From: Promethearchaeota archaeon
GTDB lineage: Archaea; Asgardarchaeota; Lokiarchaeia; Sigyniarchaeales; SOKP01
DNA length: 64,000 bases
Direction: 5' to 3'
Assembly: GCA_030599585.1 (NCBI GenBank)
Contig: JAUVNS010000007.1
Span: 32,001-96,000, forward strand
Part shown: piece after piece, positions 41,833 through 58,329 of the stretch
How the letters are laid out: every line of letters begins with the position of its first letter
Position numbering within the stretch: position 1 is the stretch's first letter
Translations under genes and position numbers: made by a program
Notes under the pieces: model-generated
What the model was told of the DNA's origin: nothing
Databases searched by the model: none
Seen by the model: only the letters and a program-made list of their open reading frames with translations

Positions 41833-42609
41833 TTAGGTTTCTTCTTCTTCCTCTCTAAATTCCTTGCCTAGTAACCGCATAACGGAATCAGCAAGCTTAT
41901 TTTGGCTGCGACTCATGATTCCTTTAATCTTCCCCTCTTTTCCAAGAACACGTAGCATAATACCATTCCATACGGAGGAAGGATTGCCTTTAACTTTCAT
42001 GAATTGATCTCTGTGTATCTCAACACTAATATTGTCGTAGTTTTTGGAAGCGTCTGTGCATTTAAAACACAAAATACATTTATCTATGTCTACTGCTATG
42101 TCCTTTCCTTCACGCGACATTGCGTCTACAGCACATTCCTTAGTAAAAGCGTCAATTACTTTGGCATTTTTCTCAGAGCAATTAAATTTAATTGAACCGT
42201 GAACTACTTTGCGAACCTTGTGACCATTTTCTAAAGTGCGAACTTCTTCGTCAAATTCGGCAAGAGATCCATTTTCCACTAATAGGATCTTATTTTCCCC
42301 ATTGATTAGCAATTCTAAAGTATATCCCGGACATATCCACGTACAACTACCGCACCAGATACACTTTTCCGTGTCTACGACAATTTTCTTGTCGGATTCG
42401 ATTCTCATTTCCTCTGGTGTTCCGATAGCGGTTCGTTTTAATGGTTCGTCGTATATAGATATAGTAACAGGACAAACTCTATGACAAAATCCGCACTCAA
42501 CGCATTTACTTTCGTCGTATTTAAGGACACTTTCATGCGAGAGCATTTTATACATGTAATGAGTAATATTCTCGTCAATCTCGATTGTTTTCTTAGCTGG
42601 TAACGACAT
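41833..42609 (-). CDS. Polyferredoxin, FwdF-like 4Fe-4S protein
   Basis: CVECGFCHRVCP, CIWCGSCTWICP, and a degenerate CILCFKC. Confidence 0.8.
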   Translation of the reverse strand: MSLPAKKTIEIDENITHYMYKMLSHESVLKYDESKCVECGFCHRVCPVTISIYDEPLKRTAIGTPEEMRIESDKKIVVDTEKCIWCGSCTWICPGYTLELLINGENKILLVENGSLAEFDEEVRTLENGHKVRKVVHGSIKFNCSEKNAKVIDAFTKECAVDAMSREGKDIAVDIDKCILCFKCTDASKNYDNISVEIHRDQFMKVKGNPSSVWNGIMLRVLGKEGKIKGIMSRSQNKLADSVMRLLGKEFREEEEET

Positions 42610-42699
42610 AATCCTTCACTTTTATTTTTCTTTCTTTAATTAAAAATATTTTTTTGTATTTTTAAGAATTTATATCCAAACTTTTTGACCAAATTAGAA

Positions 42700-43839
42700 T
42701 TACGTTTTTTCTAATTCCATTTGACTAATCGCTTTACCAGACCTAAACGGTATATCCTCTAGACTCTCACCAGCGCTGTAACCAAATTTTTCCTTAAAGG
42801 AATCGTTTAACGATTGGAAGTAAAGCGATAATGGAAGATGTTGTGGGCAATTATTATCACAATTACCGCATTCTATGCACCGGTCGGCAACATGAGCAAT
42901 CCTTGTTAATTGATAAGATTCCTTGTTGATTATCTTTTCTTTCCGTTTCTTCATTAGAATGCAATCAACGCAGTAGCATACTGGACATCCACGAATGCAC
43001 ATATTACACATTGTACATTTTTGGAACCTTTCCAATTTATCTTCCTGAGAAAGCTTGTCCCATTCTTCTAAATCCTTTGTTCTTTTTGCTAAAGCAGTAT
43101 CTTTGATTTTTTTAAGTGCTTCGGAGTGTTTTGTTCTCATATCCTCAGGTAATGGTTTTTTGTTGATCTTTGATTTTTCTACGAGATCAGCACCTTTATC
43201 TGAATATACTATTAGGACAATTTCGTCTGAATCAATAGGTAATACAAGATCGCTAACACTGATATCGGCAACAACAGGGACTTTTCGATTACAACGGGCG
43301 CAGTTTTCTGAGATTTCTAATCCGACTTCTTTTGAGCTCCCATCTTCAAATTTAAGAATTAATCCATTGTCGCCTACTTTTTCTTTGGTTACTTTAGTCA
43401 AGTCGAGTCCTTCTACTTTCTTCAATTGACGCGAAGCATTTATTACCATCCCTCTGTCCTCAAAGCCAACAATAAAAAGATTATCCATATTAATTTGTCT
43501 AATCTTTGCTAGCTCAATTATTCCGCGAGTATCACAGGGACGAGCAATAACTCCAACTTTTTCGTTCTTAGCCCCATCAACTGATTTATGTAAGAATTTC
43601 GCAGCTGTATCCGTTCTAGCGTATCCATATGCAATTAAATTTGTTAAAGGAAAAGTTGTAAGATCTTCTGACTTTTCAACAATAACTGGAGACACTGTAA
43701 ATCTATCTATAGCCCCAGATTTCTTATCTACTTTTAATTTTGCTCCAATAATCTTATCTACAAATTTTTCTTGCAAGAGCGTAGCTAATAGCTTAGGAAA
43801 ATCTTCAATTTTAATTAAATATTCATCTAATGCATCCAT
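42700..43839 (-). CDS. FdhB/FlxC-like protein (FrhB-like domain plus 2x[4Fe-4S])
   Basis: ARPCDTRGIIELAKIRQIN, CARC, ADIS, CTMCNMCIRGCPVCYCVDC, CIECGNCDNNCP. Confidence 0.8.
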   Translation of the reverse strand: MDALDEYLIKIEDFPKLLATLLQEKFVDKIIGAKLKVDKKSGAIDRFTVSPVIVEKSEDLTTFPLTNLIAYGYARTDTAAKFLHKSVDGAKNEKVGVIARPCDTRGIIELAKIRQINMDNLFIVGFEDRGMVINASRQLKKVEGLDLTKVTKEKVGDNGLILKFEDGSSKEVGLEISENCARCNRKVPVVADISVSDLVLPIDSDEIVLIVYSDKGADLVEKSKINKKPLPEDMRTKHSEALKKIKDTALAKRTKDLEEWDKLSQEDKLERFQKCTMCNMCIRGCPVCYCVDCILMKKRKEKIINKESYQLTRIAHVADRCIECGNCDNNCPQHLPLSLYFQSLNDSFKEKFGYSAGESLEDIPFRSGKAISQMELEKT

Positions 43840-43918
43840 GTTAAAAACTTTTTTTCAATTTTTTTATTAAATTATTTTTTTATATTTTTAATAACTATTA
43901 CTTTTTAAAATTTCTTTT

Positions 43919-43991
43919 ATGTGTTGTATGGTGCTTCCATTTCTTCAGCTGAATTCTCGTTTTTTTAACTCAGCTTCATCAGTTAACACAT
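43919..43991 (-). promoter_or_regulatory. Eukaryote-type SECIS element in the 3' UTR of mvhD
   Basis: Minus strand: helix I AUGUGUU/AACACAU; core AUGA...GA; helix II AGCUGAGUU/AAUUCAGCU (9 bp, one G-U); apical loop AAAAAAACGAG. Starts 5 nt after the mvhD stop. Confidence 0.85.
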
Positions 43992-43996
43992 TTATT

Positions 43997-44443
43997 TTAA
44001 GCTTTCGCTTTTTTTGTTGGTGTGCTGTCTTTGGTTTTTAGTGGACTAGGTCCTAATTTTTGTATAAGTTTATCGAATTTTATCACTTCTTGTTGAAACT
44101 TTTGCCCCTCGGCTGCGGTACAATACCCAAACATTATCCGTTCTTCACTGAGTCCCATAGATTTGAGCACTTCTTTTAAATACTCAACTTGCCGGTAAGC
44201 AACATAGTTCCCCGTTTCATAATCGCATTCTTTAGGATATCATCCAACAATCATTACGCCATCAGCGCCTCTACCAAACGATCGCATGACCATATCGGAA
44301 CCAATTCTACCGGAACACGGAACTAAAACCACTCTGATAGATAAGGGATACTGAGCGCGAATAGTTCCAGCCATATCAGCGGAACCATAGCCTCATTTGT
44401 AGCAAAGAAATGCTATAATTTTAATGTCTTGTTCTTCTGCCAT
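43997..44443 (-). CDS. mvhD: MvhD/VhuD [2Fe-2S] subunit, selenoprotein with 2 Sec (148 aa); absent from the ORF track
   Basis: Manual translation: MAEEQDIKIIAFLCYKUGYGSADMAG...VPCSGRIG...GADGVMIVGUYPKECDYETGN...CTAAEG...LGPSP. UGA at 44393-44395 (codon 17) and 44240-44242 (codon 68); GAGGT RBS; TAA stop. Confidence 0.93.
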
Positions 44444-44456
44444 TTCTATTACCTCT

Positions 44457-46433
44457 CTATTCCTCCATTGGTAGTAATTCGTCAATTAATGCCATATACT
44501 GATCGTCTCTAAAGTAAGTCAGTTCAATTGCTTTCGATGGACAAATTGCTGTGCAAGATCCGCAACCACGACATTTAATGATGTCAACAACTAACGCACC
44601 AATTTCATTTACAGAAATTGCGTAATATGGACAGATCTCAATGCATTTATAACATTTCGCACATCTTTCATCTATTGGAGTAGCACGAATTAATTCCATC
44701 GTATGTTCGCCTCTGCCCATAGGAATACTAGCAGCAGATGCAGCACCTCTTGCTTGACTTACGGCTTTATCAATTTCTTTTTGTCCTTGAGCCGAGCCTG
44801 CGATATAAATACCCATAGTTTTTGTGCTAATTGGATCTAATCGAGGATGAAATTCTTTTAAAAATCCATCAGGACTTTTCTCCATCTTCATTACTTTAGC
44901 GATTTCTAGGGTACCCTTAGAAGGGAGCGATGCAGACGATAGAACTACCATATGAGCATCCATGGTAACTACTGTATCTGTTCCAACTGGTTCAAACTTA
45001 ACCGTTAAATTCTTCGTTAATGGATCTTCTTGGATTTCTCCAACTAATCCTTTAAGAAATATTATTCCGGCTTCTCTTGAACGTCTATAGTATTCTTCGT
45101 AATCTTTACCGGCGCATCTCATATCTATATATGTACATACGATATCTGAATCAGGGTACTCCGATTTAATTAATTTAGAGTTTTTTAGCGATAGATTGCA
45201 GCATATTACCGAGCAATAAGCGTTTTTCGATACATCTCTACTCCCTACACAATTAATAAACAAGATTTTTGTAGGGCGTTTTCCGTCAGAAGGTCGTTTT
45301 AAGTGTCCGAATGTGGGCCCGTTGGGGGCTAATATTCTTTCTAGTTGAATTTGGTTGATTACATTTTCATATGTTCCATAACCATAATCATCACCTTCGT
45401 AGATGTCCCAACCCGTTGCTACTACTATTGTTCCCACTTCAAGATCTAGAAATTCATCTTGAATGCTAAAATCGATTGAATCTTCTTCGCAAGCATCAAC
45501 ACAAGCAAAACATTCAACACAAGTTTCTCGATTTATATCATAAATCGCAGGAACTGCCTGAGCAAAAGCGATGTCAATACATTTTCTAGCAGATAATCCT
45601 TCGTCAAAACTGTTAGGGATGAAAATTGGGCAAACTTCAGTACAAGCTCCACATCCGGTACATGTTTTCTCACTTACAAATCGGGAGTTCCTTTTAACTT
45701 TTATTCTGAAGTTTCCAATGTATCCATCGACTTCCACGACTTCGGAGTATGATAGGATCTCGATATTTGGATGACGATTTGCCTCCAACATTTTAGGACC
45801 GAGAATTCATATCGAACAATCGTCAGTTGGGAAAGTTCTATCTAACTGGCTCATTCTTCCGCCAATAGTAGTATTCTTTTCAACTAAGTACACTTTAAAT
45901 CCTTTGTCTCCTAAATCTATAGCAGTTGACAACCCCGCAATACCACCCCCTACTACTAGAGCAGCAGGTGTTACAGGAACGGTTTTAGTAGGTACGTTTT
46001 CTAATAGTCTTGATCGTGCTATTCCTGCCCTTATAAGTTCGATAGCTTTTTTAACGGCTTTTTCTCTTACTTCAAGAGCTTGGTGAACGAAACTACAGTG
46101 TTCTCTGATATTTACAAATTCTAAATATCTTGGAGGGAGGCCTGCTTCAGTTAAAATTGCGTGAAAGACAGGTTGATGAGTTTTTGGAGTACACGCAGCA
46201 ACAACGATTCTTTCGAGTCTAAATTCCTCGATCTGTTCCTTGATATACTCTGATCCACCCTCAGTTCACATAGACATATACTCGAAAGCTTTGACACCTT
46301 CTAATTTATTGAGTTCTTCGACAATTCCAGGTACGTCTAGTATTCCAGCGATATTAATACCTCACCGACACACAAATACACCAACAACTGATTTCTTAGT
46401 GTTATTATTATCCTTGGTCTGATTTCCAGACAT
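44457..46433 (-). CDS. hdrA: Heterodisulfide reductase subunit A, selenoprotein with 3 Sec (658 aa)
   Basis: Continuous frame from ATG 46433: GVFVCRUGINIAG, YMSMUTEGG, AACTPKTH, NIREHCSFVH, VGGGIAG, DRTFPTDDCSIUILGPKM, then the ORF-track 444 aa. UGA at 46362-64, 46266-68 and 45807-09; TAG stop. Confidence 0.93.
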
Positions 46434-46500
46434 TTTTTACACCTTGGTTTATATATCCTCCTAATTATTCAAGAGTCTATACTTTTCTAATAGCTTCTTT

Positions 46501-46544
46501 ATAGTTCTTAATACATTTTAATTATGTATGTAAAATAGTTCTTA
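46501..46544. promoter_or_regulatory. Candidate operator upstream of hdrA
   Basis: ATAGTTCTTA at 46501 and 46535 flanking the palindrome ATACAT-N7-ATGTAT (46511-46529). Confidence 0.35.
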
Positions 46545-46664
46545 TTATTAAAATTCAATTATTATCAGTTTTAAATCGATTATTATAACATTTACTCTTA
46601 AAGTGAAGTAACATAAATTTCTAATATTGAATAAAAAAATAAAAATAGATAAAAAAATAGTTAA

Positions 46665-47222
46665 TTATTTTCCGCCAAATTCAGTGACGTCACCAAACAA
46701 ACGCCTCACAGCATCTATTCTGGTTTCTTCACCAATTTGTTCGACATTTTTCAACGCTATGGCTTCTTTTGGGCAAACCGCAATACATTGAGGCTCTGTT
46801 TTTCCAACTTCAGGATCAATGAAATCTTCCTTCATACCATCGCAAAGGTCACAAATAAGAGCATTCTGGGTGTCGATGTGTAAATTTATAACTCCAAAAT
46901 CGCAAGCGCGGATACAATAAGCACATCCATTACACTTATCATCATCTACGATTATAGATCCTGTCTCTTCATTTTTCGACAATGCCTTTTCGGGACAACT
47001 TCGAATACATGGTGCGTCCTCACATTTTTGGCACGCTAGAGCGATGTTAAAAACTGGTTCAATTCGGACTCTATGAATTCGGGTGTTAATAGGATTAAAT
47101 TCGCCATCGTGGACAAATGAGCATACTGATTCGCATGTTTCGCATCCGGTACATAAATCTGGATCAATAATTATAAATTGATGCATCTTTCCCCCGCGTT
47201 TCTTCAAGGATGATCTTGACAT
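46665..47222 (-). CDS. 4x[4Fe-4S] ferredoxin-like subunit (DmsB/CooF/AorA type)
   Basis: CTGCETCESVC, CQKCEDAPCIRSCP, CNGCAYCIRAC, CDLC...CIAVCP; 4 nt downstream of AOR. Confidence 0.9.
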   Translation of the reverse strand: MSRSSLKKRGGKMHQFIIIDPDLCTGCETCESVCSFVHDGEFNPINTRIHRVRIEPVFNIALACQKCEDAPCIRSCPEKALSKNEETGSIIVDDDKCNGCAYCIRACDFGVINLHIDTQNALICDLCDGMKEDFIDPEVGKTEPQCIAVCPKEAIALKNVEQIGEETRIDAVRRLFGDVTEFGGK

Positions 47223-47226
47223 TTTC

Positions 47227-49149
47227 CTATTTACCCCCGGCTGGTTTTAACTTACCAATTACAAAATCCAACCCCAAACTCTTTAGAGTTGCATCCGTAG
47301 GAATTCCCGTTTTCGTGTCCCAACCTCGAGCTTCGTAGTATCCGCTTAGAAGTTTTTGATATCCTTCTTCTTTTAAAACGACCCCTTTAGCAGGACCCTT
47401 TGTGTGTGCTTCTTTAAAGAACCTTTCTGGGGGATGATCGTCTGCTCTGGTCCACCCTTCTCGAATATTGAAACATTTTGAAAGGTTTAAGATAGAAGCT
47501 CCTCTTTTATTAATCGATTCTTCAGTGTGTGGAATACCAGTTACTAACTCATAGACTTTTGCCAACTCTGCATCGTTTTCATAAATTCCACGAGTGAACT
47601 TACAAATTATATACGAATCGATAATACAATAGATGTCTTCAAGTCCTATGATTGCTTTACCGCGTTCAAGTGGTTTGTCGTATCCGAATCTATCGAATTT
47701 ACCTTTAGCGTCAAGTCCATAAGCACCATTCCTCAAATGGCAAGCGCCTCTAATAGATACGCTTTCGCCTACAGCAAAACTTGTCATTCCGTGAAGATCA
47801 AAAGCAGGCATTTCTAATCCTTTAATATGCATTCCATAATAGCCAGCGTTCTTTATTCCCTTTTCTTCTAACCTAATACCCGCTTGTTTACAGCCATCTC
47901 CAAAGATTTCATTAGCAAAACCTTTACCAAGAATCATTTCTTCTGTAAATCGTGCTAGATTAGTAGTAGAACCAAATGGGAGTTCGAAACCAAGGTCTTT
48001 TTTCGTTATAAGTCCTAGATCGTATAATTCGCAAGCCATACTGGCTGTTACACCGCCACTAATGGCGTCAATTCCTAGATCATCGCATAAAGCAACGCAT
48101 TTGAAAATTGTTGGCCAGTCAGCGCATCCAGTGTTAGTACCAAATGAATAACACATTTCTACATCAATTGAAGCGACTAAGTTTGGATATTCAGGGTGAG
48201 TTTTAGGTACTCTAGCGAGGTGATCGCAAGCGATTGAGCATTGAGAGCAAGCAACTTTTTTAACAATCCAGTCTTCGTTTAATTTATCACCAGTAAAGGC
48301 TCCTTTATCAATTTCTTCCCATGTGCCTTCGCGATAATTCATGGTAGGCATCATTCCGAGTTTATTGTAACTAGTTATTCCTGCAGGAGTGCCTAAATCA
48401 CGATATTTGGCGGTTGCAGGGCCATTCGCAATTTTAATTAATTTCTTTGCTATCTTGTAAAATTCCTGAGGATAAGCAACTTTAAGGCCTTTCGTGCCCC
48501 GAAAAGCTATTGCTTTCAGATTTTTACTGCCCATCACAGCTCCCATACCAGTTCGACCAGCTTGTCTATTCCTATCGTTCGTAATACATGCTAATTTGCT
48601 TAATCTTTCTCCTGCCTGTCCGATTGACATAACTGCTAATCTCTGATCTTGGAATTCTTCTCTGAGAATTTCTTCCGTTTCAAAATTTCCTTTTCCCCAA
48701 ACCGTTTTTTCACATGGCTCTAGGTAGTAATCGTCATCATCTACAACCAGGTATACGGGTTCAGAAGCTTTTCCTTTGATCACGATCGCATTGACTCCAG
48801 CGCGTCGTGCTTGTGCACCAACAGAACCTGAGGAAATAGCCATACCAAACATACCTGTTAACGGTGATTTAGCAAATACGCCGTATTTTGAACTAGTAGG
48901 TAGTATTGTAGTTGGAAAAGGGCCTATAGACCAGACAAATATGTTTTCTGGACCTAATGGGTCTATACCTGGTTTTAATTCGTCCCAGAGGATTTTTGCT
49001 CCAAATCCATAACCACCAATCCAATCTCGGCAGAATTCTCCAGATAAAGTAGATTTACCAATTTTTCCACTGGTTAAGTCGACATCGAGTCTCACTTGAG
49101 AGTATCCTTTGACATCGTCGGGCAAAGTTATTTCTTTAGATTTACTCAT
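47227..49149 (-). CDS. aor: Tungsten-containing aldehyde:ferredoxin oxidoreductase family protein
   Basis: IGGYGFG, AKSPLTG, SIGQAGE, AGRTGMGAVMGSKNLKAI, CSQCSIAC, DDLGIDAIS, RGACH, YYEARGW. Confidence 0.92.
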   Translation of the reverse strand: MSKSKEITLPDDVKGYSQVRLDVDLTSGKIGKSTLSGEFCRDWIGGYGFGAKILWDELKPGIDPLGPENIFVWSIGPFPTTILPTSSKYGVFAKSPLTGMFGMAISSGSVGAQARRAGVNAIVIKGKASEPVYLVVDDDDYYLEPCEKTVWGKGNFETEEILREEFQDQRLAVMSIGQAGERLSKLACITNDRNRQAGRTGMGAVMGSKNLKAIAFRGTKGLKVAYPQEFYKIAKKLIKIANGPATAKYRDLGTPAGITSYNKLGMMPTMNYREGTWEEIDKGAFTGDKLNEDWIVKKVACSQCSIACDHLARVPKTHPEYPNLVASIDVEMCYSFGTNTGCADWPTIFKCVALCDDLGIDAISGGVTASMACELYDLGLITKKDLGFELPFGSTTNLARFTEEMILGKGFANEIFGDGCKQAGIRLEEKGIKNAGYYGMHIKGLEMPAFDLHGMTSFAVGESVSIRGACHLRNGAYGLDAKGKFDRFGYDKPLERGKAIIGLEDIYCIIDSYIICKFTRGIYENDAELAKVYELVTGIPHTEESINKRGASILNLSKCFNIREGWTRADDHPPERFFKEAHTKGPAKGVVLKEEGYQKLLSGYYEARGWDTKTGIPTDATLKSLGLDFVIGKLKPAGGK

Positions 49150-49224
49150 GTTTTTCACTAATTTTAATTTTTGATATTTTTAGTATAGAGAATTAATACT
49201 TAATATAAAAAATTACCATTTATT

Positions 49225-49364: not shown

Positions 49365-50417
49365 TTAAAGATCGCCACCACTGACAATACTCCAGCTATT
49401 ACCGTTATATGCGTATGTCCACGTATCTCCAAGGGTGTTCCCTGGGAATCGAAACCCTCCAAATAAGATGGTTTTTTGATTATCAGAGTCATAAACCATA
49501 GAGAAATCCATTCTGTTGGAAGGATGACTTAAAGGTAGAACCTCTGTCCATTGATTGTTCGAGGGATCTAATATCCAAGTGTCTTCTATTGCTTCTCCTG
49601 GAGCTCCCGTGCGCCTTCCTCCAAAAACTATTACTTTATGATTCTGAGAATCATACGTCATTCCATGCCAATAGCGGGTGCCTGGGCTACCAGTAGTATT
49701 CAATTCGGTCCACGTATTATTTCCATAATAATAAATCCAAGTATCATCCAGTATAGATGTTGAACGACCTCCAAAGAGAATTGCTCTTTGATTTATGGGA
49801 TCGTAAACCATATTAGATCCGTATCTACCAGAAGGACTACTTAATGGATTTAATTCCGTCCATGTATTGTTGGAATAATTGTATTCCCAAGTGTCGTTAT
49901 AATGGGGTAATGAATCTTTATAACCTCCAAATAAAATAACTCTCTGAAAAATTGGATCGTAATACATAGCACAGCTCTGTCTAATCTCTGGCGCAGTATT
50001 TGGAAAAACTTCGGTCCATTGATTAGTTTGAGAGTCGTAAATCCAAATATCGTTCGTTAATCCTACATTTCCGCTCCAACCCCCAAATAAAATGGTTTTA
50101 TGGTTAATTGAATCATATACCATCGAATGACCCGATCTGGCCGAAGGTTTATTAGTTAAAATAATCTCATTCCACATGTTATCTATAGAATGGTAAACCC
50201 ACATGTCATCACGAACTTCCCAATCAGTTCCATCTTGAGTTCCTCCTCCAAAAATTATCGTTTTCTGCAGTTGAGGATCATATACTGCTCCAGGACCATA
50301 CCTACCTACGGGAGTTTGGCTTTCGATGAAAGTAACTAATAGATAAATTCCTACCAATCCCGAAGAAATAACGATTACTCCCAACACCATGGAAATGTAC
50401 TTAGTTTTCTTTTTCAT
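49365..50417 (-). CDS. Kelch-repeat beta-propeller with N-terminal TM anchor, paralog 1
   Basis: Six P.AR.G..MVYD......ILFGG...DTW.Y....W repeats. Confidence 0.9.
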   Translation of the reverse strand: MKKKTKYISMVLGVIVISSGLVGIYLLVTFIESQTPVGRYGPGAVYDPQLQKTIIFGGGTQDGTDWEVRDDMWVYHSIDNMWNEIILTNKPSARSGHSMVYDSINHKTILFGGWSGNVGLTNDIWIYDSQTNQWTEVFPNTAPEIRQSCAMYYDPIFQRVILFGGYKDSLPHYNDTWEYNYSNNTWTELNPLSSPSGRYGSNMVYDPINQRAILFGGRSTSILDDTWIYYYGNNTWTELNTTGSPGTRYWHGMTYDSQNHKVIVFGGRRTGAPGEAIEDTWILDPSNNQWTEVLPLSHPSNRMDFSMVYDSDNQKTILFGGFRFPGNTLGDTWTYAYNGNSWSIVSGGDL

Positions 50418-50594
50418 GAGAAAATACTCTGGTCATTGTATTAAATTAGCTTCCCTAACTATTCTAATAAATTGATTTTACGTAAACTTATATATATTTC
50501 TATTCGAAATACCTTTAATGGAAACCATTAAAATTCTTTTTAACAAACAGTGAATTCTCTATTTATTAAGAAATAAAAGGAGATTCGACTTCTA

Positions 50595-51644
50595 CTAAGG
50601 ATCGTTGCCTTTCACGATATTCCAGCTATTACTGCCATGATTAAATACCCAAGTATCTCCAAGATTATTATCAGTGCCCCTTATTCCTCCAAAAAGGAAA
50701 GTTATTTGAATATTAGAGTCGTAAACCATTGTAAAAAATAATCTATTGGAAGGGGAAGTTTCAGGTAAGACCTCAGTCCATTGGTTGTTGGATGGATCAA
50801 ATATCCACGTATCTTCCAATGCTCCCGCATGGCTTCCCCCGAAGACAACTATTTTGTTGTTATTAGGATCGTACACCATGCCATGCCAGTAACGGGTATC
50901 AGGTTTACTTGTAATAAATATCTCCGACCAGGAGTTATTACCATAATAGTAAACCCAAGTGTCATCCATTGTTGTTGTTGAGCGACCTCCAAAGAGAAAA
51001 CCTCTATTGTTTTTAATTTCGTATACAATTTTTGATCCATACCTAACAGGTGGGCTATTTGAAGGGTTGAGGCTAACCCAGGAATTATTGGAATAAATAT
51101 ATTCCCATGTATCTCTAAAATAACTACTAAAACTTCTGAAACCTCCAAATAATATAACTTTCTGTGCGTTAGAATCGTAATACATCGAATGGTCTTGTCT
51201 ATTAGTGGGATGATTCAAGGGAAAAAATTCTGTCCACTGGTTTGTTTGGGAGTCGTAGATCCAGGTATCGCTCGCCAAGCCTACATTTTCTACCCAACCC
51301 CCAAATAAAATTGTTTTATGGTTAATTAAGTCATATACCATCGAGTGACCCGATCTCGCCGAAGGTTTCACAGTTGGATTAATTTCAGTCCATATGTTAA
51401 ATGTTGGATCGTAAAGCCACATGTCATTAAATACTTCAGAACCACTTGTATCTTGATATCCTCCCCCAAAAAGTATCATTTTTTGTAGAACGGGATCGTA
51501 AACCATCGCAGAACCGTACCTCGCTGAAGGAGAAGCATTTTGAATAACAGCAAAAAAAAATAGAGTTCCAATTGTTCCGGAGGAAATTATAATTCCTACT
51601 AAACTTAAAATTAAAATTTTAATTCTTCTCTTCATGAAATCCAC
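50595..51644 (-). CDS. Kelch-repeat beta-propeller with N-terminal TM anchor, paralog 2
   Basis: Same repeat pattern; shares PSARSGHSMVYD.INHKTILFGGW with paralog 1. Confidence 0.9.
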   Translation of the reverse strand: MDFMKRRIKILILSLVGIIISSGTIGTLFFFAVIQNASPSARYGSAMVYDPVLQKMILFGGGYQDTSGSEVFNDMWLYDPTFNIWTEINPTVKPSARSGHSMVYDLINHKTILFGGWVENVGLASDTWIYDSQTNQWTEFFPLNHPTNRQDHSMYYDSNAQKVILFGGFRSFSSYFRDTWEYIYSNNSWVSLNPSNSPPVRYGSKIVYEIKNNRGFLFGGRSTTTMDDTWVYYYGNNSWSEIFITSKPDTRYWHGMVYDPNNNKIVVFGGSHAGALEDTWIFDPSNNQWTEVLPETSPSNRLFFTMVYDSNIQITFLFGGIRGTDNNLGDTWVFNHGSNSWNIVKGNDP

Positions 51645-51807: not shown

Positions 51808-54570
51808 ATGACTGAAACTACGGATACAACACAAAATGAGAAAGCCGAGAAGATACTCTCAAGCGATATCATAAAAAATGTTATTGCAAATGCAAACTAT
51901 TGTTATAATTGCAATCGTTGCGTAAATGTATGTCCAGTATCTTATTTAGACCTATTTTATCCAAGAAATTTGATTACAGATTTAACTTTCTTATCGCCTG
52001 AAGAAGCACTAAAGAATAATAATATTTGGGATTGCCTCACATGTGGATTGTGCACCGAATATTGCCCAATGACTAAAGGTAAGACTGGTGTTAACTTCAC
52101 TGAGATTATAAAGGAACTTCGAACATTGACTTCGGAATACGAGCCTTTACAAGAGACTCTGCGAAGTTGTAATCACGATAGGGTTTATTCCAGTATACCA
52201 AAATTAATGGCAGATGATAAGATAAAATTCACCAATAAGCTTGGATTCTTAGAAGGAACCGGATTGAAAACAAAAAGCGAAGGGGAACTCGCTTACTTTA
52301 TGGGTTGTGTACCGTTTTTAACTGGGACGGCACCTTGCGTTGTAGGATGTCCAGCTGGAGTAGATGTTCAAGGATACGTTTCCTTAATCTCTGAAGGAAA
52401 ATTTCAAGAATCCATAGATTTAATAAGAGAAATGAACCCTTTACCTTATTTGTGTGGAAGAATTTGCACTGCTCAGTGTGCTTTGAACTGTAATCGTCAA
52501 CATCACGATGATCCCGTGGCAATTCGAGAGTTAAAACGATTTGTATCTGATTATGAAGCTGCGCATCCAAACAATAGTAAAATACAGCCCGTTAAACAAA
52601 CTAAAGAAAAAGTAGCAATTATCGGGGCTGGACCAGGAGGATTATCTGCAGCTTACTACCTTGCGCGAATGGGATACAAACCTACAATCTATGAAAAAGG
52701 TGATAAAACGGGTGGAGTCGTAAGATATGGTGTTCCTCAATATAGGCTATCTGATGAGGCGTTAGACCACGATGTAGATTTCATAAAAAGTATGGGAGTT
52801 GAAATTGTACTGAACAAGGAGTTTGGAGCTAATTTCACCCTTGAAGATCTTAAGAAGGAAGGATTTAAAGCAGTGTTTATTGCGGTAGGTCTGTATGTAC
52901 CAAAAACTTTGCGACTGGAAGGTGAGGATTTACCTAATGTTCATGTTGCTATAGATTTTCTCTTGGATCGGAAATATGGTTGCGCAGAAGACCCTGAAGA
53001 ATTTAAAGGTAAAACTTTTGGCATAATCGGGGGAGGAGCAGTCGCCGTTGATGTAGGAGAAACCGCTGTGAGATTAGGTGCTACGAAAGCTGATTTCGTA
53101 GATATATTAACTGAGGAAGCGCTTAAAAATGTGCTTAAAGATTTGCACGAGGCCGAGAGAGAAGTAATGGAATATCATTTTACTACTTCGACAAAAAACA
53201 TAACTCAAGAACCTAATGGAAAGTTAGCCTTAAATTGTTATAAAATTGAATGGGGAGAACCCGATCCTGAAACGGGAAGACGCCCCCTGAATAAAGTGGA
53301 AGAGTCTGATTTTAAGATCGTTGTAGATCATGTCGTTACTGCTATCGGGCAAGGACTTGATGTTGTCCCCATTAATGCTGCAACTGAAAGCAAGTTAAAA
53401 ATTGATCGAGGCAGAATTATAGTTGATCAAGTAACTTTTGAAACTAGCATTCCCGGCGTTTTTGCAGGTGGAGATATCATTAATGATTCACTTATGTGTG
53501 CCGTTGATGCTATAGGAAATGGTAGAGAAGCTGCGTACTCAATCGATCGCATCTTCCGTGGAATTGATTTAAAAGAGAGTAGGATTAGAATGAAAGAATT
53601 AAAACGTTCTACTATCCCTAAAAAATACATTCAGGTAAATTCTTGTCAAGAAATGAATTTTATGCCTGGAGAAGAAAGATTGGTATGTTTTGATGAAATG
53701 GAGTTAGGATATACCGAAGAACAAGCAATTAAAGAGGCAAATCGTTGCTTAAATTGTAATTGTTGTAGTAATAGCGATCAAATCCCTGAAGATTATGACG
53801 CAGCTTTAGATTCCTCAGGAATAATGATTGCAAACTATGGAAACCAAGCTAACATGCCTTCTTATAACTCTCCAGATTATTTAACTATCCCTAAGAGCGT
53901 AATCGGAATCCTAAATCAAAACAATATTGTACCAGTTGTTTTGCCCGAAGAAAAATGTTGTGGTCACGACATTGTTTGGCAAGGCGATATGGAATCCTTT
54001 GAGAAATTAGCGAAGTATAATGTCAAGTTGTTTAAAGACGCTGGTGTAAAAACAATTGTATTCAGCTGCCCTGAAGGGTATTACACTTGGAAAGATGAGT
54101 ATAAAAAACTGTTTAAAAAAAGCGAAGATTTCGATTTTGAGATTTATCACATTTCAGAATACATCTTGAAAGAAAATCTTCTAGAAGATATATCTTTTCC
54201 AAACCTGGGAGAGGTTAAAGTTACTTATCATGATCCGTGTAGACTCGGTAGAATGAGTAATGTTTACGACGCCCCTCGTGAAGTTTTGAACAAAATACCG
54301 GGCATACAACTACTCGAGATGGAAAATAATAGAGTAGATGCTGATTGTTGCGGTGTGTCAGCCTATATTTCATGCAATCAAAATTCCAAACTACTACAAG
54401 CGTCAAGAATAAAACAAGCAATTGAAACTGGTGCGGATTATTTAATTACCACCTGTCCGAAGTGTTTAACGCATTTTAACTGCTATTTGAATGAAAATAA
54501 GGAACTTAAAAACAAAATAAAGGTAACGGATTTACTAAGCTTTATTGGTAAAATGCTTTTTATGCAGTAA
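51808..54570 (+). CDS. HdrD/GlpC-like protein (2x[4Fe-4S] + CCG domains) with an inserted GltD/NfnB-like FAD/NAD(P) module
   Basis: CYNCNRCVNVCP, CLTCGLCTEYCP, YFMGC | PCVVGCP, CGRIC, GAGPGG, YGVPQYRL, FAGGD, RCLNC | CCGH, YHDPCRLGR, CCGV, TCPKC. Confidence 0.88.
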   Translation: MTETTDTTQNEKAEKILSSDIIKNVIANANYCYNCNRCVNVCPVSYLDLFYPRNLITDLTFLSPEEALKNNNIWDCLTCGLCTEYCPMTKGKTGVNFTEIIKELRTLTSEYEPLQETLRSCNHDRVYSSIPKLMADDKIKFTNKLGFLEGTGLKTKSEGELAYFMGCVPFLTGTAPCVVGCPAGVDVQGYVSLISEGKFQESIDLIREMNPLPYLCGRICTAQCALNCNRQHHDDPVAIRELKRFVSDYEAAHPNNSKIQPVKQTKEKVAIIGAGPGGLSAAYYLARMGYKPTIYEKGDKTGGVVRYGVPQYRLSDEALDHDVDFIKSMGVEIVLNKEFGANFTLEDLKKEGFKAVFIAVGLYVPKTLRLEGEDLPNVHVAIDFLLDRKYGCAEDPEEFKGKTFGIIGGGAVAVDVGETAVRLGATKADFVDILTEEALKNVLKDLHEAEREVMEYHFTTSTKNITQEPNGKLALNCYKIEWGEPDPETGRRPLNKVEESDFKIVVDHVVTAIGQGLDVVPINAATESKLKIDRGRIIVDQVTFETSIPGVFAGGDIINDSLMCAVDAIGNGREAAYSIDRIFRGIDLKESRIRMKELKRSTIPKKYIQVNSCQEMNFMPGEERLVCFDEMELGYTEEQAIKEANRCLNCNCCSNSDQIPEDYDAALDSSGIMIANYGNQANMPSYNSPDYLTIPKSVIGILNQNNIVPVVLPEEKCCGHDIVWQGDMESFEKLAKYNVKLFKDAGVKTIVFSCPEGYYTWKDEYKKLFKKSEDFDFEIYHISEYILKENLLEDISFPNLGEVKVTYHDPCRLGRMSNVYDAPREVLNKIPGIQLLEMENNRVDADCCGVSAYISCNQNSKLLQASRIKQAIETGADYLITTCPKCLTHFNCYLNENKELKNKIKVTDLLSFIGKMLFMQ

Positions 54571-54713
54571 GTATTTACCAGTCATTATTCTCTATTTCTT
54601 TTCTAAACCCATTCTTTTCCCCTCAATTATAACAACCTTAATTAATTCTTGAACTTTAAATCAAATTGAAATAAGGTAACAATATCTTAATTAAATAGGT
54701 GTCTTGATAAACA

Positions 54714-55625
54714 TTGCCGTATGAGATTTTAGAGAAAAAAGAACTAGGAAGTAGCAAAACTATTTATGAAATGGTATTACGCACTCCATTAATTGCTAAG
54801 AAAGCTCACGCCGGAAATTTTGTTCTAATAAGAATTAATGAAACTGGAGAAAGGATTCCATTGACTATTGCCGATTACGATAGAGAGAAAGGGACTATAA
54901 CATTAGTAATTCAGGTGGTGGGTAAGAGTACTAAGTTACTCTGCAATCAAAATGTTGGAGATCAAATACTTGATGTCGTAGGGCCTTTAGGAAACGAAAT
55001 ACATGTGAAAAAGTATGATAATCCTATAGTAATTATTGGGGGTGGAATCGGTATAGCTCCTTGTTTTCCTCAAGCAAAAGAGCTCAGAGACGCAGGAAAT
55101 GAAATTATATCCATTTTAGGAGCCAGAAATAAAAGTCTTCTTATTTGGAAAGAAAAAATGAAAACTGTGAGCGATGAATTAATTGTCACTACTGACGACG
55201 GAAGCGAGGGAATAAAGGGAGTTGTTACAGATCCGCTTAAACAAATTATGCAAAAGAGGAAAATAAGTCTTGTAATCGCTATCGGACCTTTAATTATGAT
55301 GAAGTATGTTGTTCTTACTACTAACGGGTCTGGAGGTTTGCCTAAAGTAAAAACCTTTGTTTCTTTAAACACAATCATGGTTGACGGGACTGGTATGTGC
55401 GGGTGTTGTCGGTTTTCTACGCTCGAAGGTGATATTCAGTTTGCATGTGTAGACGGCCCAGATGTCGATGGACATATCGTTGATTTTGATAACTTATTAA
55501 AGCGCGCTGATAGATTTCTTGAACAAGAGAGAGAGTCTTTGGAATGCTACGACGAAGAATGCAGAGCATTAGAACAACAAAAAAAGGAGGTTGTGAAGAA
55601 TGGAGATAAAAAGATCTACAGTTAG
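54714..55625 (+). CDS. nfnA: NfnA/SudB small subunit (FAD, NAD, [2Fe-2S])
   Basis: GERIPLTIAD, VVGPLG, GGGIGIAP, TDDGSEG, MVDGTGMCGCCR, ACVDGP. Confidence 0.9.
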   Translation: MPYEILEKKELGSSKTIYEMVLRTPLIAKKAHAGNFVLIRINETGERIPLTIADYDREKGTITLVIQVVGKSTKLLCNQNVGDQILDVVGPLGNEIHVKKYDNPIVIIGGGIGIAPCFPQAKELRDAGNEIISILGARNKSLLIWKEKMKTVSDELIVTTDDGSEGIKGVVTDPLKQIMQKRKISLVIAIGPLIMMKYVVLTTNGSGGLPKVKTFVSLNTIMVDGTGMCGCCRFSTLEGDIQFACVDGPDVDGHIVDFDNLLKRADRFLEQERESLECYDEECRALEQQKKEVVKNGDKKIYS

Positions 55626-58329
55626 AATACTAATTGAGAACAAGGACAAAATTTTAAAAGCAGGGAAATTCAAGGAAGCTGAATTTAAAAAATTAATTGA
55701 TGATTTAACTATTGCCGAACTTTACCAAAAAAAAATTATTGAAGGAATCGAAGAATACGGAACCATTGATAATCCTCGGTTGTTATCAGAGCTAGGAACT
55801 TCAGAAAAAAAAATTGCCAGCACAATTGAATATCTTAAAGAATTTGGGTATTTAGAAGCTTATGGGGAGATACCGCGATTTTTTAATGCGGAAATTCAAA
55901 ATTTGAAACAGTATGGCATTCTTCCAAATGTAAAAATTATAAGAGACAGTAATTTATGTTGTGGGTGTGGATCGTGTGTGTCGTTATGTCCTGTTAGCGC
56001 AATAACATATTCAAAGGGAACATTCGAGATTGACGAAGAAGTATGTATCCGTTGCGGTTTGTGTTATACATGCTGTCCGAGATCTTTTTTCCCAAAAACT
56101 TTAGATGCTTCTGAGGATAACGATAATGAAAACATTAATTATTCAAGTCAATTTAATTATTATCATGAAATAATTACAGCTCAGACCACAAATACTGATA
56201 TTACTCAAGTAGCTCAAGATGGTGGTATAGTTACCACTCTCCTGAAAATGGCTTTCGATCAAAATCTAATTGACGGAGCTTTGGTCGTAACTGAAGGATT
56301 AGAGCCTTTGAACCCTTTACCCATATTTATAGAGCGAGAAGAGGACCTTCTAAAAACAGCGGGAACAAAATACACCAATTCACCTATTTTAAAAGAACTT
56401 TACAAGTACAGAGATAGTAAAAAAATCGCTGTAGTTGGAACTCCTTGTATTATGAAAGCTCTTAAAAAGTTATCTTTTTACCCCTTGCACAACCCGTTTT
56501 ACGAAAATATTGCAATTAAAATCGGTCTGTTGTGTTCGGAGTCGTTTGATTACTCAGAAATTACTAAACTACTGAAGAATGAATTTCAATCCACTCCCGC
56601 TGATGTTAAAAAAATGGATATTAATAAGGGTCGTTTTTTCATCTACAACCACGATGGTACCGTTTTAGATATCCCTATAAAAAAAATTAAGAAATATGGT
56701 CGTTTAGGTTGCTTTTTCTGTGAGGATTTAACAGCAATACACACCGATATTTCCGTAGGCTCGATCGGTTCCGATGTTGGTTGGTCAACAGTGTTCATAC
56801 GAACAGAAAAAGGAGCTGAGTTCTTTCAAAAAGCTTTAGATCTTAATATGATTGTGAAGAAAGAGATCGAAGAAGATAGCAAAAGTTTCAATTCACTTAG
56901 TAGGATAGCTAAATTCAAATTAAAAAGCTATGAAGAACTTCACCGTGTTGAAATGAAACAACAAGAACCAAATGTAAGGATAACAAACTTTGAAGAAGTT
57001 CCACTTGGTTTAACCGAAGAAATGGTTGAAATTGAAACTCAACGATGCCTTCAATGTGGAAATCCTCTCTGTATTTCCGGGTGCCCTGTTAATATCAAAA
57101 TTCCTCAATTTATCAAGTTACTAAAACAAAAAAAATACATTGAAGCTCTATATAAGATTAAGGGAGATAATTTATTACCCGCTATCTGTGGGAGAGTTTG
57201 TCCCCAAGAAACTCAATGCGAATTAGTGTGCATTATGAATGGTCTTGGAGAACCAATAGCAATAGGTCATTTAGAGCGTTTTATAGCAGACTGGGAAAGG
57301 AAAAATAAACTTAAGGAGTGTCCTGAGTGTGCAGCACCTAAAGGGATTAAAGTAGCTGTTATTGGTGCTGGACCAGCGGGACTAGCTTGTGCTGGAGAGC
57401 TGGCAATGAATGGTTATGAAGTTACTATTTTTGAAGCTTTTCATGCCGGAGGGGGTGTTTTAATCTACGGAATACCTGAGTTCAGACTCCCTAAAGAGAT
57501 AATCAAGAGCGAAATAGAGACTCTAGAAATGCTCAATGTTAAAATGGAATACAACTCCATCATTGGAAAAACATTAACTATCGAAGATTTAAGAGACATG
57601 GGTTTTAAAGCATTTTTTATTGGAGTTGGAGCAGGACTTCCCATTTTCTTGAAAGTATCTGGTTTATCTTTAACCGGCGTCCTTTCGGCGAACGAATTTC
57701 TTACGAGATCAAATTTAATGAAAGCTTTTAGATTTCCAGATTACGATACCCCCGTTAAAGTTGGAAAAATCGTGACTGTTATAGGTGGAGGAAATACCGC
57801 ACTAGATTCTGCGAGAACTGCATTAAGGTTAGGTGCTGAAAAAGTAATTATCGTTTATCGAAGATCTGAAGCGGAAATGCCCGCAAGAAAAGAAGAATAT
57901 CATCACGCATTGGAAGAAGGTATAAAATTTCAATTCTTAACTAATCCCGTTCAATTTATTGGCGACGACAACGAGAATGTAACTCAAATGAAAGTTATTA
58001 AAATGAAATTAGGAGAACCTGACGAATCGGGGAGGAGAAGACCCGTTAGAATTGAGGGTTCTGAATATGTGATAGACACAGACACAATTATCATCGGAAT
58101 CGGAACAGGAGCTAATCCTATTTTAACCAAGTCAATCCCCGACTTAAAACTGAATAAATGGGGCTACATCGAAATAGATGAGAATGGCCAGACAAATATT
58201 AAAGGTGTTTTTGCTGGTGGAGATATTGTAACTGGAGCTGCTACTGTCATTACAGCGATGGGAGCAGGAAAAATGGCTGCACATGCAATAGATAAGTATT
58301 TACAAGAAAATTATTTAGATAAGAATTAG
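55600..58329 (+). CDS. Fusion of an FpoF/FrhB-like F420-binding module to NfnB/SudA
   Basis: CCGCGSCVSLCP, CIRCGLCYTCCP, AQDGGIVT, GTKY, GTPC, IGLLC, CFFC, DISVGS; then NFEEV, RCLQC, CGRVCPQETQCE, GAGPAG, YGIPEFRLP, GGGNTA, YRRS, FAGGD. Overlaps the nfnA end by 26 nt. Confidence 0.9.
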   Translation: MEIKRSTVRILIENKDKILKAGKFKEAEFKKLIDDLTIAELYQKKIIEGIEEYGTIDNPRLLSELGTSEKKIASTIEYLKEFGYLEAYGEIPRFFNAEIQNLKQYGILPNVKIIRDSNLCCGCGSCVSLCPVSAITYSKGTFEIDEEVCIRCGLCYTCCPRSFFPKTLDASEDNDNENINYSSQFNYYHEIITAQTTNTDITQVAQDGGIVTTLLKMAFDQNLIDGALVVTEGLEPLNPLPIFIEREEDLLKTAGTKYTNSPILKELYKYRDSKKIAVVGTPCIMKALKKLSFYPLHNPFYENIAIKIGLLCSESFDYSEITKLLKNEFQSTPADVKKMDINKGRFFIYNHDGTVLDIPIKKIKKYGRLGCFFCEDLTAIHTDISVGSIGSDVGWSTVFIRTEKGAEFFQKALDLNMIVKKEIEEDSKSFNSLSRIAKFKLKSYEELHRVEMKQQEPNVRITNFEEVPLGLTEEMVEIETQRCLQCGNPLCISGCPVNIKIPQFIKLLKQKKYIEALYKIKGDNLLPAICGRVCPQETQCELVCIMNGLGEPIAIGHLERFIADWERKNKLKECPECAAPKGIKVAVIGAGPAGLACAGELAMNGYEVTIFEAFHAGGGVLIYGIPEFRLPKEIIKSEIETLEMLNVKMEYNSIIGKTLTIEDLRDMGFKAFFIGVGAGLPIFLKVSGLSLTGVLSANEFLTRSNLMKAFRFPDYDTPVKVGKIVTVIGGGNTALDSARTALRLGAEKVIIVYRRSEAEMPARKEEYHHALEEGIKFQFLTNPVQFIGDDNENVTQMKVIKMKLGEPDESGRRRPVRIEGSEYVIDTDTIIIGIGTGANPILTKSIPDLKLNKWGYIEIDENGQTNIKGVFAGGDIVTGAATVITAMGAGKMAAHAIDKYLQENYLDKN

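Follow-up and report, generated by a model that had tools for sequence, protein, structure and literature searches.

In a 64,000-nucleotide window of DNA from a Promethearchaeota archaeon lies what is very likely, on its sequence, an intact Lokiarchaeia (Promethearchaeia) selenoprotein gene: an hdrA with three TGA codons to be read as selenocysteine (Sec). Two of the three, U24 and U56, probably both bind the iron of HA3 (or A3), the [4Fe-4S] cluster of the HdrA N-terminal domain (PMC13518236; PMC9012536) and the shuttle cluster for the low-potential electron (PMC13580544). That at least one of them does so is, by the same conservation argument, highly likely. The gene type, its shared SECIS and the 24/56/209 pattern are already published; our departure from the literature is interpretive only, in that two selenium atoms on HA3 seem not yet to have been spelled out.

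A predicted selenoprotein hdrA hidden by gene calling

The table-11 open reading frame begins at 45791, 214 codons inside the true start of hdrA. It had been proposed that the frame runs on upstream and holds TGAs at codons 24, 56 and 209. This is borne out: the frame has 658 codons and exactly three in-frame TGAs, those at 24, 56 and 209, with a GGTG ribosome-binding-like word 6 nt ahead of the ATG (Table 1). Standard gene calling drops those 214 codons and the whole of vhuD, an annotation that needs fixing.

The TGAs sit in the motifs VCRUG, SMUTEG and DCSIU. HMMER alignments pair U24 and U56 with Cys in 5ODC, 8RVU and 9SFI (by alignment, C13 and C46 of 5ODC), while U209 pairs with Cys in 5ODC and 8RVU and with Sec (X, U197) in Methanococcus maripaludis 9SFI. 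The original prediction was thus right to place the stops at HdrA Cys positions, which supports the Sec reading, and to call DCxxU the methanococcal Sec site. Conserved Cys occupies 26 of the 658 columns, and the probability that three stops would all hit these by chance, as they do, is about 5.5e-5. The identical three TGAs recur in three congeneric genomes at 89–91% identity, so they are not sequencing errors.

The product matches methanogen HdrA over its full length: M. maripaludis 9SFI (PMC13518236; E 6.5e-208), Methanothermococcus thermolithotrophicus 5ODC (1.7e-197), Methanothermobacter marburgensis 8RVU (3.5e-192) and Methanospirillum hungatei 7BKB (5.1e-176). It shares their cluster motifs and domain order: N-terminal domain, FAD-binding thioredoxin-reductase-like domain, and inserted and C-terminal 2x[4Fe-4S] ferredoxin domains. 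The methanogen proteins differ in having one Sec or none and an all-Cys N-terminal domain. The HA4 motif, C-x(n)-C-x3-C-C, is present as C395, C407, C411 and C412. Residues E365 and K417 align to E356 and K409 of 5ODC, which we take to be the Glu/Lys pair beside the flavin. The NCBIfam HdrA equivalog models score 749, 605 and 559 bits against cut-offs of 1100–1400; these models span 762–777 positions with a fused MvhD, and vhuD is a separate gene at this locus.

Table 1. Features of the hdrA–vhuD locus (positions in the 64,000-nucleotide window)
Feature	Position	Strand	Remarks
hdrA, three Sec	44457..46433	(-)	658 aa, ATG to TAG with TGA read through
N-terminal domain, ~residues 12-140	46014..46400	(-)	thiols C22, U24, U56, C81
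U24 codon TGA	46362..46364	(-)	C-x-U motif, N-terminal domain; putative HA3 ligand
U56 codon TGA	46266..46268	(-)	putative HA3 ligand
U209 codon TGA	45807..45809	(-)	canonical C-x-x-U, equivalent to U197 of M. maripaludis HdrA
vhuD/mvhD, two Sec	43997..44443	(-)	148 aa, 13 nt past hdrA stop
vhuD U17 codon TGA	44393-44395	(-)	
vhuD U68 codon TGA	44240-44242	(-)	
lokiSECIS core	43945..43979	(-)	AUGA, 9-bp stem, 11-nt A-rich loop, GA
FdhB/FrhB-like subunit	42700..43839	(-)	conserved directly 3' of hdrA-vhuD in orthologue group
Ferredoxin-like protein	41833..42609	(-)	weak FwdF-type matches; found downstream in 38/68 loci
Aldehyde:ferredoxin oxidoreductase (AOR) + DmsB-like Fe-S subunit	46665..49158	(-)	upstream of hdrA

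One SECIS, probably for two genes

HdrA and VhuD are a textbook pair. The vhuD downstream has its TGAs at codons 17 and 68; M. maripaludis VhuD (9SFI chain K) has Sec at the same two sites. Eighteen bases past its stop lies a lokiSECIS (fold z -2.75), the sole such element within 1.3 kb past the hdrA stop, and its 9-bp stem and 11-nt loop agree with the published lokiSECIS shape (PMC4989117). Rfam gave no SECIS match at gathering score anywhere in the window. On the 2016 model, hdrA and vhuD would be transcribed as a polycistronic mRNA, and the one eukaryote-like SECIS 3' of vhuD would recode all five UGAs, the farthest about 2.4 kb upstream.

For Loki HdrA, Mariotti et al. 2016 report as many as four Sec, distributed over five positions, with hdrA always upstream of vhuD and one SECIS serving up to six UGAs over ~2 kb (PMC4989117). 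The multi-Sec tandems reported there have the same UGA-at-Cys pattern, including the site near residue 200, a two-Sec vhuD downstream and a single lokiSECIS. In the catalogue of Huang, Xiao and Zhang 2024, Asgard HdrA selenoproteins number in the hundreds (PMC11227280, Supplementary data 2). HdrA had rightly been flagged as a reported lokiarchaeal selenoprotein, then, and the question whether the three-Sec variant had been described can be answered with yes: two entries of the 2024 set, Lokiarchaeia_GCA_019894885_U and GCA_013375495_U_3, are near-identical in sequence and carry the same three sites (VCRXG, SMXTEGG and DCSIXI, with Sec written X in that supplement). Across its HdrA file SMXTEGG occurs 6 times, CRXG 175 times and AXTP 115 times. 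How many Sec there are, and where they lie in the structure, is not taken up in the HdrA passages of that paper's main text.

Selenocysteine machinery in the genome, partly as candidates

The Sec machinery that the original prediction named as a check is present, partly as candidates. SepSecS scores above cut-off in the same genome, as do two selD genes, both interrupted by a single in-frame TGA. The selD pair is in tandem (contig C34 of this genome, G000, at 187468-188265 and 190381-191178), and multiple selD copies have been reported for Loki genomes. Below their model cut-offs are an EFSec candidate (231.7 bits against 242.25) and a PSTK candidate (E 4.7e-45).

The tRNA-Sec, with a UCA anticodon, lies at C28:16776-16922 (+), between SepSecS and the EFSec candidate, 3.8 kb from the latter. 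It has two introns, one of 28 nt in the anticodon loop and another of 30 nt in the T loop; spliced, it is 89 nt long and folds as a cloverleaf at -48.5 kcal/mol. Rfam (nothing above cut-off in the genome), ARAGORN and pattern scans all missed it, and only BLAST located it, with the intron-less tRNA-Sec of relatives as queries; an intron-less copy scores above cut-off in 16 of 40 genomes of the genus. The lokiarchaeal tRNA-Sec described in the relevant passage of PMC4989117 has the T-loop intron only, whereas ours has a second, in the anticodon loop. Other lokiSECIS-like elements occur in the genome at C20:52503, C26:120384, C34:226786 and C40:117301, the first of them just before an hdrB-like gene.

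Selenocysteine and cysteine trade places

A class-wide search found a match in 150 of 151 genomes, and the top-listed matches each have 1–5 TGAs. Among 77 aligned hdrA homologues all 189 internal TGAs stand on conserved Cys columns, none at a non-Cys position, and the non-Sec state at every Sec site is Cys. UGA/Cys exchange, which the original prediction named as a check, is evident at both N-terminal codons: Sec occupies site 24 in 71 of the 77 and site 56 in 17, with 21 at site 81, 74 at site 209 and six in all in the inserted ferredoxin (258, 308, 311), frequencies that come from hits picked by score and are not an unbiased census. All 77 frames read through to TAA or TAG, an outcome forced by the extraction, yet most are 643–690 aa, which is full length.

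Sixty-eight named orthologue loci, a set that overlaps the 77, break down into 48 with U24 and U209, 14 with U81 in addition and six with U56 in addition; Sec24 is near-fixed among the homologues, and most orthologues have Cys at 56. On the 77-protein tree, from a quick IQ-TREE search, site 56 changes state 10 times, at least six of these changes being forced by well-supported branches. Sec56 is therefore a recent and repeated exchange, and the three-Sec form, from the locus counts and the tree together, is one of several common variants. The Cys codon at site 56 is mostly TGT, one base off TGA.

Within the genome itself, hdrA is present in five Sec-type copies, each with two to four Sec, and in three all-Cys single-module copies, two of them adjoining hdrB. 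Besides the copy in the window, the Sec-type genes are at C50:65406-67310 (U24/56/81/209), C24:310924-312882 (U24/56/209), C24:251398-253335 (U24/209, and a Sec at 311 in the inserted ferredoxin) and C20:387118-389061 (U24/209, with a SECIS directly past the stop and no vhuD seen downstream).

Relatives with the locus that are labelled Promethearchaeota or Promethearchaeia are Lokiarchaeia. Five further records, filed under Nanopelagicaceae, Hermodarchaeota, Odinarchaeota, Hodarchaeota and Thorarchaeota titles (L111, L113, L121, L128 and L152), carry a Loki-type locus at 69–93% identity and are probably mislabelled depositions.

Probable selenium ligands of cluster HA3

The original prediction held that the two extra Sec replace thiol ligands of the N-terminal [4Fe-4S] cluster. 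Near-invariance across 140 diverse N-terminal domains is confined to four Cys, at 22, 24, 56 and 81 (98–99% each), which align to C11, C13, C46 and C71 of 5ODC; C113 reaches 73% and is Asp in 8RVU and 9SFI. The two ferredoxin domains and the HA4 motif account for the other 20 conserved Cys. Our model of the domain (pLDDT 94) superimposes on 5ODC, 8RVU and 7BKB/7BKD with TM 0.89–0.92. With four near-invariant thiols in the domain that bears HA3, we infer that at least one of the extra Sec, and probably both, bind the cluster. This much of the original prediction stands; its claim on both residues is weakened by a crystal structure in which the partner subunit's Cys197 is described as one ligand of the N-terminal cluster (PMC9012536), which means that one of the four thiols could be a non-ligand. 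Even with partner residue 209 as one of four ligands, three of the four N-terminal thiols still bind, and these must include U24 or U56.

A precedent may exist next door. By elimination, the second Sec of methanococcal VhuD would be a [2Fe-2S] ligand, which would put selenium on an Fe-S ligand within the HdrA/VhuD complex. BLASTP between the HdrA N-terminal domain and VhuD gave no useful similarity, so ligand positions in MvhD are not transferable by sequence.

Mariotti et al. state that, one exception apart, the Sec sites of Loki HdrA do not ligate clusters (PMC4989117), a point not taken up again in the HdrA passages of later reviews or of PMC11227280. One figure legend puts HA3 at the HdrA C terminus (PMC12350162). 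No residue-numbered list of HA3 ligands turned up in the open literature searched. HA3 has been described as coordinated by five cysteines, which we do not count as evidence. The 'not cluster ligands' statement was made before Wagner's HdrABC structure of 2017.

Across the paralogues C22 is fixed and 24, 56 and 81 are exchangeable. The hdrA in the window has Sec at two of these sites, and one-, two- and three-Sec versions of the N-terminal domain all occur within its own genome. We found no statement of a Sec-bound HA3 series in the open literature searched, a search that misses most subscription journals. We would give even odds that Lokiarchaeia HdrA paralogues offer a natural [4Fe-4S] shuttle cluster with one, two or three selenolates that is both real and unreported. 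If so, the series would overturn the 2016 statement and would let one ask how selenium tunes the low-potential branch of flavin-based electron bifurcation.

In loci L050, L073, L076, L078 and L084, and in the genome's own copy ending at C24:253335, Sec occurs at the CxxCxxC positions 258, 308 and 311 of the inserted ferredoxin; these would be clearer cases of Sec as a [4Fe-4S] ligand. Locus L078 has five Sec in one HdrA, against the maximum of four reported in 2016.

What the selenium might do, and other readings

In M. maripaludis the Cys-Sec197 pair shows density between cluster A3 and FAD and is a proposed relay (PMC13518236); in M. marburgensis the Cys pair at the equivalent site binds an unknown ligand (PMC13580544). 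By analogy with the methanogen homologues, the C206/U209 pair would lie, in the folded dimer, between the clusters and the bifurcating FAD. Electrons would probably enter from the adjacent FdhB/FrhB-like subunit via VhuD, to judge by synteny, and selenium would be placed on those parts of the electron path that move. What it brings is probably modest tuning or robustness to oxidation, because sites 56 and 81 alternate between Sec and Cys in close orthologues; at least six exchanges at site 56 argue for mild tuning and not a new mechanism. Sec is concentrated on three N-terminal thiols and the relay pair, which suggests selection, and the lability of sites 56 and 81 suggests that the effect of selenium is small. 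The extra Sec may retune bifurcation, as first proposed, but Sec56 is labile and Cys stands at its site in most orthologues.

It could instead be that HA3 takes only one of U24 and U56 as a ligand. The second residue, most likely U24 in its C-x-U motif, would then be a redox selenol, free or exchangeable in the manner of MvhD's extra Cys16, and the partner's U209 would be a transient ligand. The crystal assignment of partner Cys197 fits this, as does the near-fixation of U24, which resembles that of the redox U209 and not the behaviour of U56 and U81. MvhD has a fold related to the HdrA N-terminal domain (weak matches, TM ~0.43), its Cys16 is a non-ligand (PMC13580544), and the Cys16 position is Sec in VhuD. 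We think this unlikely all the same. In the cryo-EM states the CxxC/CxxU pair binds other density or forms a selenylsulfide, and HA3 stays on a mobile arm 20–33 Å from FAD (PMC13580544, PMC12350162, PMC13518236). Away from that pair, the cluster must find all four of its ligands in the N-terminal domain, where no more than four thiols are invariant. Ligation of HA3 by both U24 and U56 is the reading we prefer.

A different doubt concerns function and is compatible with Sec ligation: the extra Sec may be nearly neutral drift, a long-range SECIS tolerating TGT-to-TGA changes at exposed, exchange-tolerant thiols. This has some appeal, given the state changes at site 56, the TGT codons there a single base from TGA, and the 48 loci with only two Sec. 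Against it, Sec is unevenly spread, with 109 at the three N-terminal thiols, 74 at 209 and six in the inserted ferredoxin, and in the 77 homologues C22, C206, the HA4 motif and the C-terminal ferredoxin are free of it; Sec has also arisen at the same sites in separate paralogue clades, and U24 is close to fixation. On balance we regard drift as a real possibility but a doubtful one. A pseudogene, an assembly artefact with three nonsense codons or a genome-wide reassignment of TGA is extremely improbable. The source is a metagenome-assembled genome with 8.9% contamination, but the stops fall only at conserved Cys in the 77 plus 68 overlapping homologous loci, the SECIS and Sec machinery are both present, and TGA ends 224 of 1948 long frames (some possibly Sec codons). 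That pattern of stops on Cys columns rules out the pseudogene and the genome-wide reassignment.

Gene neighbourhood

The hdrA-vhuD-fdhB-like order is kept in the orthologue group, and an AOR lies upstream of hdrA in about half of the related loci (29/57). Methanogen HdrA works with HdrBC and Mvh, Vhu or Fdh in methanogenesis, whereas the operon in the window offers an FdhB-like gene, with no hdrBC or hydrogenase among the genes at 41833-49158 (-). The hdrB genes above cut-off lie elsewhere in the genome, next to the all-Cys hdrA copies, and synteny suggests that the HdrBC partner would be supplied from elsewhere in the genome. On the opposite strand at 51808-58329 (+) is a second flavin redox cluster, made up of a 920-aa HdrC/GltD(NfnB)/CCG fusion, an NfnA-like gene and a 909-aa FrhB-like/NfnB-like fusion, that might supply a high-potential partner. 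At 49365-51644 (-) lie two tandem paralogues of ~350 aa, each with an N-terminal hydrophobic segment and, by eye, kelch-like repeats.
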